A stretch of 10,986 bases of DNA, from contig JBHLPL010000064.1 of NCBI GenBank assembly GCA_048939465.1, forward strand, positions 1 through 10,986, given 5' to 3'. Position numbers and translations under genes: made by a program. This DNA comes from Promethearchaeota archaeon. Its GTDB lineage: Archaea; Asgardarchaeota; Odinarchaeia; Odinarchaeales; JBHLKK01. Below are positions 4,628 through 9,463 of this stretch, one piece after another (the first letter of the stretch is position 1; every line of letters starts with the position of its first letter). Below the pieces are notes generated by a model. That model saw only the letters and a program-made list of their open reading frames with translations, was not told the DNA's origin and searched no databases.

Positions 4628-4759
4628 TTCACACAGCATCTTCGAAAAACGGATTGCAGAAACGAAAGACTAAATTATATTTATTAAGGAAATAATAAAT
4701 AAAATGAAAGACCATTCTCCAAAAGAGTATGCCGGGCGGGTGGTCTAGGTGGTTATGAC

Positions 4760-4779
4760 ATCCTCAAAAGAGACATAAG
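4760..4779 (+). other. tRNA-Val intron 1, position 25/26 (20 nt)
   Basis: 4-bp central helix TATG (4754-4757)/CATA (4774-4777) with 3-nt bulges AC^A and AG^A; short inner stem. Outer exon helix is weak (relaxed BHB). Boundaries could slide by 1 nt on sequence alone; BHB geometry favours these. Confidence 0.8.
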
Positions 4780-4799
4780 ACCGCGCTTACAACGCGGAG

Positions 4800-4826
4800 A
4801 TTTGACAACAGAATGTCAGACCGGAA
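4800..4826 (+). other. tRNA-Val intron 2, position 45/46 (27 nt)
   Basis: 5' bulge AG^A, 7-bp inner hairpin TTTGACA/TGTCAGA, central helix GCGG/CCGG (3 of 4 pairs), 3' bulge AA^G. Excision restores AGGTC. Confidence 0.75.
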
Positions 4827-4910
4827 GTCCGGAGTTCAAATCTCCGCCCGCCCACCACCTCCTTGAAAAGCAATCGTGTGTTCTATCCTTTATGCTAGGG
4901 GCTGAAGAAG

Positions 4911-6185: not shown

Positions 6186-9161
6186 ATGGTAACCGTAAAG
6201 GAAATATCAAAAGCTGTATCCTTTCCAGATTTAGAAAGTGCAATAATGAAATCTTGGAAAGATAATAAAACCTATGAGAAGGTCAAAGCTTTACGAAAGG
6301 AATCTCCGGAGTACTTGTTCATAGATGGTCCTCCATATACAACAGGACACATTCATGTTGGTACAGGCTGGAACAAGGTATTGAAGGATTTTATTCTGAG
6401 ATATAAGCGCATGAGGGGATACAATGTAAGAGACACGCCGGGTTATGACATGCATGGACTTCCAATCGAAGTGCGCGTCGAACGTGAAATGAAGATTACA
6501 AATAAAAAGCAAATTGAAGAGATTGGAATCGATAAGTTTGTATCCAGTTGCAAAGAATTTGCTTTGAGCTTTCTGGATACCATGACAGATGAATTTAAAC
6601 GCCTGGGTATCTGGATGAACTGGAAGAAGCCATATGTGACCCTCGAAAATGATTATATTGAAGGGGTTTGGTGGGCGATCAAGAAAGCTTTCGAGAATGG
6701 CTATCTGTATAAGGGCTTACGCCCTCTGAACTGCTGCCCCAGATGTGAGACGGCAGTGGCCAAACACGAGTATGAGTATCAATCTGTCGAAGATTACTCT
6801 ATTTTCGTGAAATTCCCAGTTGAAGGAAAAGCTAATGAATACATAGTCATTTGGACTACTACTCCATGGACTCTCCCGGCAAATCTATCAGTCATGGTCC
6901 ATCCTTTCTTTGAGTATGTCAAGGCTGAAGTTGGCGACGAGGTTTGGATAATGGCCAAAGGGATGACTACTTCCTTCATTCAGGGCCTCTTGGGAAGGGA
7001 TTTCAGAATACTGGAAGAATTCGCTGGAGAGAAGCTTTCGGGATTGAAGTATGTCCATCCGCTGAGGGAGGAGGTGCCGAGGCAAGAGGAATTAGAGGGA
7101 GAATTCGAATATGTCCATCGGATAATTCTAACTGATGAATTTGTAACTCTGGAACAAGGAACAGGATGTGTGCATTCTGCGCCGGGACATGGTCCAGAAG
7201 ATTTCGCCGTGGGACAGAAGTATGGTCTGCCTGCTTTTTGTCCTGTGGATGAGTCTGGTCACATGACCGAGGAAGCTGGAAAATACGCTGGGATGACTTT
7301 GGAAAAGACAAGCGAAGCTGTCCTCGAGGATTTGAAACGGAAGGGACTTCTGATTAATGTGGGAAGAGTGAAACATGATTATGCTCATTGCTGGCGGTGT
7401 AAAACCCCCCTGATTTATCGTGCCACTGAACAATGGTTCCTGAAAATGAGCGCACTAAAGGACAAGATGAAAAGCGAGAACAATGGAGTTTATTGGATGC
7501 CTCAATGGGCTGGCAATCCTTGGTTCAATAATTGGATTGAGAACATTCAGGATTGGTGTATATCAAGGCAGAGATACTGGGGCACTCCTATGCCTATTTG
7601 GATGTGCGACAAATGTGGTTATGCTGAAGTCATAGGTTCCGCCAAGGAGCTAAAAGCCAAGAGCAAAATGGAACCTGAAGACCTCCACCGACCTTGGATA
7701 GACAAAGTAACTTGGAAATGCAGCTGTGGGGGGACAATGAAAAGAGTTGAAGACGTTCTGGACGTCTGGGTCGATAGCGGATCATGCGTCTGGTCTTCAA
7801 TTCCTGCAATGTTAGGAAAAAAGGAATTTGAGAATTGGAAGCAAGCGTCATTGATTCTGGAGGGAAAGGATCAGATTCGTGGTTGGTTTAATACACTAAT
7901 GAGTTTGGGTATTGTCACATCGGGAAAGCGTCCATACAATGCAGTCTATATGCATGGAATGACCAATGATGAGAATGGCAAACCAATGAGCAAATCTCTA
8001 GGAAACTTCACTTCACCAGAGGAGGTTACAGAAAAATTCGGTTCGGAGACCTTCAGGTTTTATTCAGTAGGTACAGCAAATCCGGGGGAAGATATGAGAT
8101 TTAGCTGGAGGGCGATAAAGGATACTCATCGAGTCTTGAACATACTCTGGAATACATATGTATTCGCGACTACCTTCATGAGGAGTGCAGATTTCGATCC
8201 AAAGAAACACCCTCTTGAAAAGACCGACCTTCAGCCAGAAGACAGGTGGATTCTGTCGCGGGTAAATACGCTCGTTGAACAAGTGACTGATCGATTTGAA
8301 ATGCTGGATCTGCAAGCAGTACCTAGACTCTTACGTGACTTCATCGTGCTTGATTTGAGTAGGTGGTACATCAAGCTCATAAGAGAAAGAACTTGGGTAA
8401 CCGCAAGAGGACCTGAGAAGATTGCTGGTCTTGCAACCCTTTATTATGTACTGCATAGACTTCTCCGATTACTGGTTCCGTTAACACCCGTACTAGCTGA
8501 AGACTTCTATCGACATCTAGTAAGACCAGTTGATCCTAATGCTCCTGAAAGCGTTCACATGACAGATTGGCCTGAGGCTGAGAATGATCTAATAAACTCT
8601 GAGCTCGAAGATCAAATGAATCTTGTTCAAGATATTGTTGAGGCTTCCCTTGCCATAAGACAAGAGGAGGGAATAAAAAGAAGATGGCCTTGCGGGAGTT
8701 TGTTTGTCAAATTAAAGGCAGGTGTGAGCCTCGGCGAGGAGTTATTAGAAATAGTCGGAAAGATGGCTAATGTGCACGAGATCCAGACAGTTGGAGAGGT
8801 AAAGCCATCTGAAAGCCTTAAAGAGCGGGAGCTTGCTCAATGCTGGGTATATCTTGATACGGAGGTCACAGAGGAGCTGAGGGCTGAGAGATTTGTTAGA
8901 GAGCTGATAAGGAATGTTCAATTCACAAGAAAGAAGAATTCATACCATGTTGGAGAAGAGATTGAGCTTGTGATACTGCTTGAAGACAAGAAACTTCAAG
9001 AATACGTAGAACAGTTTGAAGAGTCAATAAAGAGCAAAGTAACCGCTAAAACTCTCAGTGTATTATTGCGGCCACCCCAAGAACCTGACAAATATGCCAA
9101 GGGAAAAATGAACTACGAAGGTAAAGACATTGTGATTTATTTTAGACGAACGTCTCAGTAA
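6186..9161 (+). CDS. ileS: Isoleucyl-tRNA synthetase (archaeal/eukaryote-like type 2)
   Basis: 991 aa: DGPPYTTGHIHVGT (HIGH variant), GYDMHGLPIE, editing-domain WTTTPWTLPAN and GTGCVHSAPGHGPEDF, DWCISRQRYWGTP, EGKDQIRGWF, GKPMSKSLGN (KMSKS variant), WYIKLIRER. No bacterial type-1 C-terminal Zn finger. Confidence 0.98.
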   Translation: MVTVKEISKAVSFPDLESAIMKSWKDNKTYEKVKALRKESPEYLFIDGPPYTTGHIHVGTGWNKVLKDFILRYKRMRGYNVRDTPGYDMHGLPIEVRVEREMKITNKKQIEEIGIDKFVSSCKEFALSFLDTMTDEFKRLGIWMNWKKPYVTLENDYIEGVWWAIKKAFENGYLYKGLRPLNCCPRCETAVAKHEYEYQSVEDYSIFVKFPVEGKANEYIVIWTTTPWTLPANLSVMVHPFFEYVKAEVGDEVWIMAKGMTTSFIQGLLGRDFRILEEFAGEKLSGLKYVHPLREEVPRQEELEGEFEYVHRIILTDEFVTLEQGTGCVHSAPGHGPEDFAVGQKYGLPAFCPVDESGHMTEEAGKYAGMTLEKTSEAVLEDLKRKGLLINVGRVKHDYAHCWRCKTPLIYRATEQWFLKMSALKDKMKSENNGVYWMPQWAGNPWFNNWIENIQDWCISRQRYWGTPMPIWMCDKCGYAEVIGSAKELKAKSKMEPEDLHRPWIDKVTWKCSCGGTMKRVEDVLDVWVDSGSCVWSSIPAMLGKKEFENWKQASLILEGKDQIRGWFNTLMSLGIVTSGKRPYNAVYMHGMTNDENGKPMSKSLGNFTSPEEVTEKFGSETFRFYSVGTANPGEDMRFSWRAIKDTHRVLNILWNTYVFATTFMRSADFDPKKHPLEKTDLQPEDRWILSRVNTLVEQVTDRFEMLDLQAVPRLLRDFIVLDLSRWYIKLIRERTWVTARGPEKIAGLATLYYVLHRLLRLLVPLTPVLAEDFYRHLVRPVDPNAPESVHMTDWPEAENDLINSELEDQMNLVQDIVEASLAIRQEEGIKRRWPCGSLFVKLKAGVSLGEELLEIVGKMANVHEIQTVGEVKPSESLKERELAQCWVYLDTEVTEELRAERFVRELIRNVQFTRKKNSYHVGEEIELVILLEDKKLQEYVEQFEESIKSKVTAKTLSVLLRPPQEPDKYAKGKMNYEGKDIVIYFRRTSQ

Positions 9162-9255
9162 AATATATGGAAAAGATTTTAAGGAGCCACAGTAAATCTC
9201 AGATACAGTGGGTGTCGGCAATCTTTGACCGGTGGGGCCGTAGCTCAGCCTGGAT

Positions 9256-9273
9256 AGCATAAGAGGCCCGGAT
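9256..9273 (+). other. tRNA-Ile intron 1, D-loop 20a/21 (18 nt)
   Basis: Central helix CTGG (9250-9253)/CCGG (9268-9271), 4 pairs including one G-U; bulges AT^A and AT^G; 2-bp inner stem GC/GC. An 18-nt excision shifted by 1 nt would give A21 instead of G21 but has no BHB. Confidence 0.7.
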
Positions 9274-9290
9274 GGAGCGCCGGCCTTATA

Positions 9291-9327
9291 AGACCACGTT
9301 CCAAACAAGAGTTTCATGCTCTAAGAA
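9291..9327 (+). other. tRNA-Ile intron 2, canonical 37/38 (37 nt)
   Basis: Textbook BHB: central helix CTTA (9285-9288)/TAAG (9322-9325), bulges TA^A and AA^A, outer helix is the anticodon stem. This fixes the anticodon register as UAU. Confidence 0.92.
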
Positions 9328-9335
9328 AGCCGGAG

Positions 9336-9365
9336 ATACCTTGTGAATTCCACAAGGTAATGAAC
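9336..9365 (+). other. tRNA-Ile intron 3, position 45/46 (30 nt)
   Basis: 5' bulge AG^A, perfect 9-bp hairpin TACCTTGTG/CACAAGGTA, then 4+2 nt before exon GTC (exact BHB spacing). Central helix CCGG/ATGA has only 2 of 4 pairs. Confidence 0.65.
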
Positions 9366-9463
9366 GTCGTGGGATCGAAGCCCGCCGGCCCCACCACTCA
9401 TTCTTAGACAATGATGCTTTGAATGAATGACTGAACGCGTATGACTATATCTTACGGTATGAT

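Follow-up and report, generated by a model that had tools for sequence, protein, structure and literature searches.

A predicted tRNA-Ile(UAU) gene split by three introns behind ileS in an Odinarchaeia-type Asgard archaeon

Introduction

Most archaea rely on TiaS to make the tRNA-Ile(CAU) that reads AUA codons. An encoded tRNA-Ile(UAU) in genomes without TiaS has been described for Nanoarchaeum equitans, Korarchaeum cryptofilum and the ARMAN lineages (PMC6000648; Fujishima et al. 2011, PMC3239211), and the tRNA-splicing endonuclease (EndA) of ARMAN-2 cleaves its own pre-tRNA-Ile(UAU) in vitro (PMC3239211). In Asgard archaea, the study by Kaneta et al. (2018, PMC5829648) predicts disrupted tRNAs and reports incomplete tRNA sets for four genomes, including Odinarchaeota LCB_4, and describes an (alpha-beta)2 EndA with the L1 loop. 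Complete genomes of Atabeyarchaeia and Freyarchaeia carry introns in 92 to 95% of their tRNA genes, with several introns in more than half (Valentin-Alvarado et al. 2024, PMC11291895). In a preprint of October 2026, single genes have as many as five inserts, and it is those in the D-arm that annotation programs miss; tRNAscan-SE recovers nearly all introns of Thermoproteales but often misses Asgard D-arm inserts (bioRxiv 10.64898/2026.10.13.758758). Triple-intron tRNAs are also known from Thermoproteales, for which Sugahara et al. (2007/2008) and Marck and Grosjean (2003) are cited as sources.

The stretch of DNA analyzed here (the window; 10,986 nt) derives from the genome of an Odinarchaeia-type Asgard archaeon. 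An earlier note, made from the letters alone, had proposed a triple-intron tRNA gene at positions 9234-9396. The gene is a clear example of a kind already described in Asgard archaea and not a new kind of element.

Results

Structure of the gene and its spliced product

The locus spans 163 nt on the plus strand (9234-9396), and excision of 9256-9273, 9291-9327 and 9336-9365 leaves a 78-nt cloverleaf. When the four exons (9234-9255, 9274-9290, 9328-9335 and 9366-9396) were joined, ARAGORN called a tRNA-Ile(tat) with an encoded CCA end, and RNAfold returned a clean four-arm cloverleaf at −35.8 kcal/mol. The coordinates proposed earlier, with inserts of 18, 37 and 30 nt at positions 20a/21, 37/38 and 45/46, were confirmed. 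In the unspliced order, 5′ to 3′, the locus reads GGGGCCG, UA, GCTC, a 28-nt "D-loop", GAGC, G, CCGGC and CUUAUA, followed by the 37-nt insert, A, GCCGG, 35 nt, the T-arm, CGGCCCC, A and CCA.

Exon 1 (9234..9255) supplies the 5′ acceptor strand, U8/A9, the 5′ D-stem strand GCTC and the D-loop up to position 20a. Exon 2 (9274..9290) contains G21, the 3′ D-stem strand, G26, the 5′ anticodon-stem strand CCGGC and C32 to A37, with the anticodon TAT at 9287-9289. The 8-nt exon 3 (9328..9335) holds A38, the 3′ anticodon-stem strand GCCGG, A44 and G45, and exon 4 (9366..9396) comprises G46 to C48, the T-arm (GTGGG/ATCGAAG/CCCGC), the 3′ acceptor strand, the discriminator A and the encoded CCA (9394-9396). 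All 21 stem pairs of the mature form are standard, and U8, A14, G18-G19, U33, A37, C56, A58 and G15:C48 are present. The anticodon loop, C-U-UAU-A-A, is fixed by the anticodon stem together with the strict motif at 37/38, and the exons are close to those of other archaeal tRNA-Ile(UAU) genes. Two positions, G21 (not A21) and A54, are uncommon; the T-loop lies at 9374-9380 (ATCGAAG).

Upstream, on the same strand, ileS (6186..9161) encodes a 991-aa isoleucyl-tRNA synthetase with the Pfam domains tRNA-synt_1, Anticodon_1 and DUF5915, and stops 72 nt before the tRNA. An open reading frame on the minus strand that overlaps the tRNA (9063-9317) had no Pfam match and was taken as spurious. As judged from its letters and its relatives, 9234-9396 is a genuine predicted tRNA-Ile gene for the AUA codon, split into four pieces by three putative introns.

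Splice motifs

The splice sites were assessed against the canonical bulge-helix-bulge (BHB) geometry, in which a central helix of 4 bp is flanked by two 3-nt bulges, one on each strand, and cleavage follows the second base of each bulge. Intron 1 (9256..9273, 18 nt, D-loop position 20a/21; cuts after 9255 and 9273) has a BHB core on both cut sites, with the central helix CUGG/CCGG (4/4 pairs, one of them G-U), bulges AUA and AUG, a 2-bp inner helix and a 1-bp outer helix. Its boundary is uncertain by one base, the alignment giving 19 nt and the motif 18 nt. Intron 2 (9291..9327, 37 nt; cuts after 9290 and 9327) occupies the canonical 37/38 position and shows a strict hBHBh′ motif, in which the central helix is CUUA/UAAG and the 5-bp anticodon stem serves as the outer helix. 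The motif of intron 3 (9336..9365, 30 nt, variable loop 45/46; cuts after 9335 and 9365) is relaxed. Both of its cuts are set in canonical register by an inner hairpin of 9 bp (9337-9345 with 9351-9359), and the central helix forms only two of its four pairs, with a 5′ strand that doubles as the 3′ strand of the anticodon stem. The earlier description of a BHB or relaxed BHB at every insert therefore stands, with a full core at the first, a strict motif at the second and a relaxed one, weak in this genome, at the third.

Shuffled sequence contained as many bare BHB cores as the locus (13 ± 5 versus 12), and their number was dropped as evidence for this reason. In shuffles, a core of this quality coincided with any one pair of cut sites at a rate of about 1.5e−3, which makes the two exact coincidences of core and cut site, at introns 1 and 2, informative. 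What counts is thus the match of cores to independently defined insert boundaries rather than the cores as such. For intron 3, a combination of hairpin and register this good arose in shuffled sequence at about 2e−4 per site pair. Splicing would take place at exactly the three predicted sites; cleavage at the sites of intron 3 is the least secure point of this prediction.

Orthologs and motif-independent evidence

Since three free deletions give much freedom and bare cores are common, tests independent of the motif were relied upon. The compact tRNA-Ile(UAU) of a Thermoprotei MAG (L060), from which the canonical intron was removed beforehand, was aligned globally to the locus. It matched 67 of 74 exon bases and placed inserts of 19, 37 and 30 nt in the D-loop, anticodon loop and variable loop.

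Orthologs were found in four genomes of the genus Odinarchaeum (L002-L005), which belong to the same order but to another family. Each carries introns at the same three positions and splices to a 78-nt tRNA-Ile(tat); the sequence of one matches a contig of a 'Candidatus Odinarchaeota archaeon' MAG exactly. The mature window and Odinarchaeum tRNAs share 65 of 78 bases, and all 21 stem pairs are standard in both. Seven of the differences lie in stems and keep pairing, three pairs being altered on both sides and one on a single side (U-G to U-A). Intron 1 measures 15 to 17 nt in Odinarchaeum (n = 4), and position 45/46 has a strict BHB core with the central helix CCGG/CCGG in all four orthologs. 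The reading of the 30-nt insert of the window as an intron rests mainly on this strict core. The CCGG/CCGG helix and the anticodon stem are mutually exclusive, so that the Odinarchaeum RNA would have to refold between two cleavages.

Between the window and Odinarchaeum, identical columns number 11 of 18 in intron 1, 26 of 37 in intron 2 and 13 of 32 in intron 3. Introns 1 and 2 thus look homologous between the two families, and intron 3 appears to have diverged. With all three positions in common, the introns are probably older than the split of the families. The 37/38 intron (9291-9327) shares with L002-L005 the blocks GACCRCG and ACAAGAG, which exceeds what the pairing constraint alone requires. 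A C/D-box guide, considered because of this conservation, was rejected, as no C box (RUGAUGA) was seen by eye in either family.

Position 55 of tRNA is almost universally U or pseudouridine; the T-loops of L002-L005 carry C55 (TCCGAAT). In two further genomes of the window's own genus (G001 and G002; 78% and 82% complete), the tRNA pattern and the end of ileS were both absent; with the whole ileS region missing, these genomes are uninformative. In a collection-wide search with a 16-mer from the anticodon arm, the matches listed were dominated by bacterial genomes and also contained the Odinarchaeota MAG and compact archaeal relatives. Metagenomes were scanned with the 3′ exon and, separately, with the anticodon arm together with the conserved beginning of intron 2; neither scan gave a match.

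Genes for tRNA-Ile(UAU) with three or four introns were also found behind ileS in other Asgard families. Those of L146 and L147 (family f16) and L139 (family f12) are 198 to 205 nt long; with a further insert in the T-loop, each has at least four inserts.

Alternative readings of the locus

The weakness of the third motif leaves room for a reading in which only the D-loop and 37/38 inserts are introns and the 30-nt insert is kept as a long arm, or is removed elsewhere or by other means. Its half-formed central helix, which competes with the anticodon stem, speaks for such a reading, as does the stable 9-bp hairpin, which resembles the variable arm of class II tRNAs; in the variable region and the D-arm, some inserts have no canonical motif and may not be introns (bioRxiv 10.64898/2026.10.13.758758). 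A tRNA-Ile is, however, a class I tRNA. Excision at 45/46, where every Odinarchaeum ortholog has its strict core, leaves a variable loop of 5 nt, and the insert differs between the families in length (30 versus 19 to 20 nt) as well as in sequence. The hairpin, moreover, sets both cuts in exactly the canonical register, which shuffled sequence seldom does. Taken together, retention or another mode of removal is improbable.

A decaying pseudogene, or a cloverleaf assembled by chance from three free deletions, would account for the silence of standard tools on this locus, and the freedom of three deletions and the abundance of chance BHB cores lend it some plausibility. Against both readings stand the alignment to L060, for which no motif was used, and the stem pairs, all 21 of them standard in two families and three of them changed on both sides. 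The position behind ileS is constant in ten loci, the CCA is encoded, and TiaS was not found despite heavy use of AUA (see below). The chance of either is accordingly very slight. A functional tRNA-Ile(UAU) gene that serves as the AUA decoder of an Odinarchaeia-type Asgard archaeon, and whose transcript is spliced by the EndA/RtcB pathway proposed below, is on these comparisons very likely.

Candidate splicing enzymes and proposed pathway

The genome encodes two EndA paralogs, each with an N-terminal and a catalytic-type domain. The putative alpha subunit (contig C90, 204 aa) has its best match in the catalytic subunit of the Aeropyrum pernix (alpha-beta)2 enzyme (3P1Z_B; E value, 1.5e−44) and keeps the Tyr, His and Lys residues, the His column being where 3P1Z_B and the variant chain 3AJV_B differ. 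Its N-terminal domain contains an insert of 11 residues in which a Lys aligns with A. pernix K44; this insert corresponds to the Crenarchaea-specific loop (L1). The putative beta subunit (contig C139, 191 aa) has Val at the catalytic His column and lacks the insert. The match to 3P1Z_B and the residues of the two paralogs point to the (alpha-beta)2 type, and the broad-specificity heteromeric EndA that had been postulated for this lineage is upheld, with alpha and beta presumably assembling as a heterotetramer. The pair agrees with the Asgard (alpha-beta)2 type with L1 as described in PMC5829648.

Two matches to the ligase RtcB were found. One of them (G000 contig C31: 2961-5708, minus strand) lies in a 973-aa open frame, and a gap of about 1.4 kb divides its Pfam match in two, suggestive of an intein or a different large insertion.

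In the proposed pathway, a precursor of at least 163 nt would be transcribed from an A/T-rich upstream element of its own or together with ileS. The heteromeric (alpha-beta)2 EndA, its alpha subunit bearing the Crenarchaea-type loop, would cut the BHB-type sites at 20a/21, 37/38 and 45/46, and ligation of the four exons by RtcB would then yield the 78-nt tRNA, its CCA end already in place. Charging would presumably be carried out by the IleRS encoded just upstream.

AUA decoding and the distribution of TiaS

AUA accounts for 72 of the 210 Ile codons (34%) in the ORFs of the window. Searches with PF08489 did not find TiaS in the window genome (91% complete) or in five genomes of its order, one of which is a single contig with a completeness rating of 98%; the four archaeal control genomes all scored. 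ARAGORN found no CAU tRNA in the window genome, tRNA-Met included, so all CAU tRNAs escape detection and a tRNA-Ile(CAU) may be hidden.

Among Asgard genomes at least 90% complete (drawn from G000-G209), 62 of 101 have TiaS (PF08489). At the family level within G000-G209, it was not found in f1 (which includes the window genome), f2, f9, f12, f13, f16 and f23. Exact-pattern matches to the anticodon arm of tRNA-Ile(UAU) were confined to f1, f2, f12, f13 and f16 and never occurred in a TiaS-positive family. On this pattern, TiaS and tRNA-Ile(UAU) look mutually exclusive across Asgard families; no report of such exclusivity in Asgard archaea was found in the literature searched.

The order ileS then tRNA-Ile(UAU) was seen in 10 of 10 loci from five Asgard families (the window, L002-L005, L138, L139 and L145-L147). 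In the TiaS-less family f9, no tRNA lies downstream of ileS in three genomes, and these rule out a tRNA behind ileS as a universal trait of TiaS-less Asgard genomes.

Annotation and tRNA interruption across the genome

The suspicion that standard annotation misses this gene proved well founded. ARAGORN made no call on the locus with its intron mode on or off, and the Rfam tRNA model gave no match at the gathering score, nor under limits of E ≤ 10 for the local stretch and E ≤ 1 for the whole genome. In the 1.96-Mb assembly (152 contigs, 43% G+C, 91% complete), only 24 tRNAs reach the Rfam cut-off. A signature of intact T-arm, matching acceptor stem and encoded CCA identified 18 tRNA genes; 15 of them exceed 100 nt, and the longest, on contig C66, measures 186 nt.

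A second hidden tRNA was observed in the window at 4734-4857 on the plus strand. Two excisions, of 20 nt at position 25/26 (4760-4779; strict BHB core) and of 27 nt at 45/46 (4800-4826; central helix 3/4 pairs, inner helix 7 bp), leave a 77-nt tRNA-Val(UAC), in which a 37/38 intron is absent. ARAGORN in intron mode miscalls this locus as tRNA-Leu(CAA), and Rfam gives it only 18 bits.

Discussion

The gene shares with the multi-intron tRNAs of Asgard archaea its several BHB-type introns, many of which lie at non-canonical positions in these genes, a D-arm insert missed by annotation programs and an (alpha-beta)2 EndA with L1. The earlier note had placed multi-intron tRNAs and introns at non-canonical positions mainly in Thermoproteales; the rarity that this implies was overstated, as the host is an Odinarchaeia-type Asgard archaeon and heavy interruption in Asgard archaea is published (PMC5829648, PMC11291895). 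Those Asgard surveys that quantify interruption center on Atabeyarchaeia, Freyrarchaeaceae and Jordiarchaeaceae, and the text of the preprint does not include Odinarchaeia. Because they center on other lineages, and because multi-intron Asgard tRNAs are already in print, the gene adds a lineage and not a new kind. With the Thermoproteales it has in common up to three BHB introns per tRNA, motifs both strict and relaxed, and an (alpha-beta)2 EndA that carries the Crenarchaea-specific loop, but it comes from a different phylum.

Its closest parallels in decoding are the tRNA-Ile(UAU) genes of N. equitans, K. cryptofilum and ARMAN, which likewise encode UAU in the absence of TiaS and contain a 37/38 intron that base-pairs through its 3′ part with the anticodon loop (CUUA/UAAG). 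Those examined here from Nanoarchaeota and the Thermoprotei MAG, and that of ARMAN-2 as described in PMC3239211, have the canonical intron only, whereas the window gene has two more and lies directly behind ileS.

Documented heavy tRNA interruption in Asgard archaea is hereby extended to an Odinarchaeia-type family. Were the tRNA-Ile(UAU) gene left out, the genome would seem to have no AUA decoder, a concrete case of the under-annotation of Asgard genomes by standard finders. With one strict, one near-strict and one relaxed site in a single transcript, the gene also offers a compact substrate for probing the range of Asgard EndA.

In eukaryotic tRNA-Ile(UAU), pseudouridylation depends on the intron. 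TiaS-less Asgard lineages, that of the window among them, might read AUA in the eukaryotic manner, with a 37/38 intron that pairs with the anticodon, is always kept and is needed for modification of the anticodon before splicing. We consider this unlikely; its observed part is the complementary distribution of TiaS and tRNA-Ile(UAU), and the intron-dependent modification is speculation. If true, the eukaryotic arrangement for AUA decoding would already have existed in Asgard archaea. The evolution of AUA decoding near the base of the eukaryotes is a question to which the UAU anticodon, the failure to find TiaS and the constant place of the gene behind ileS are all relevant.
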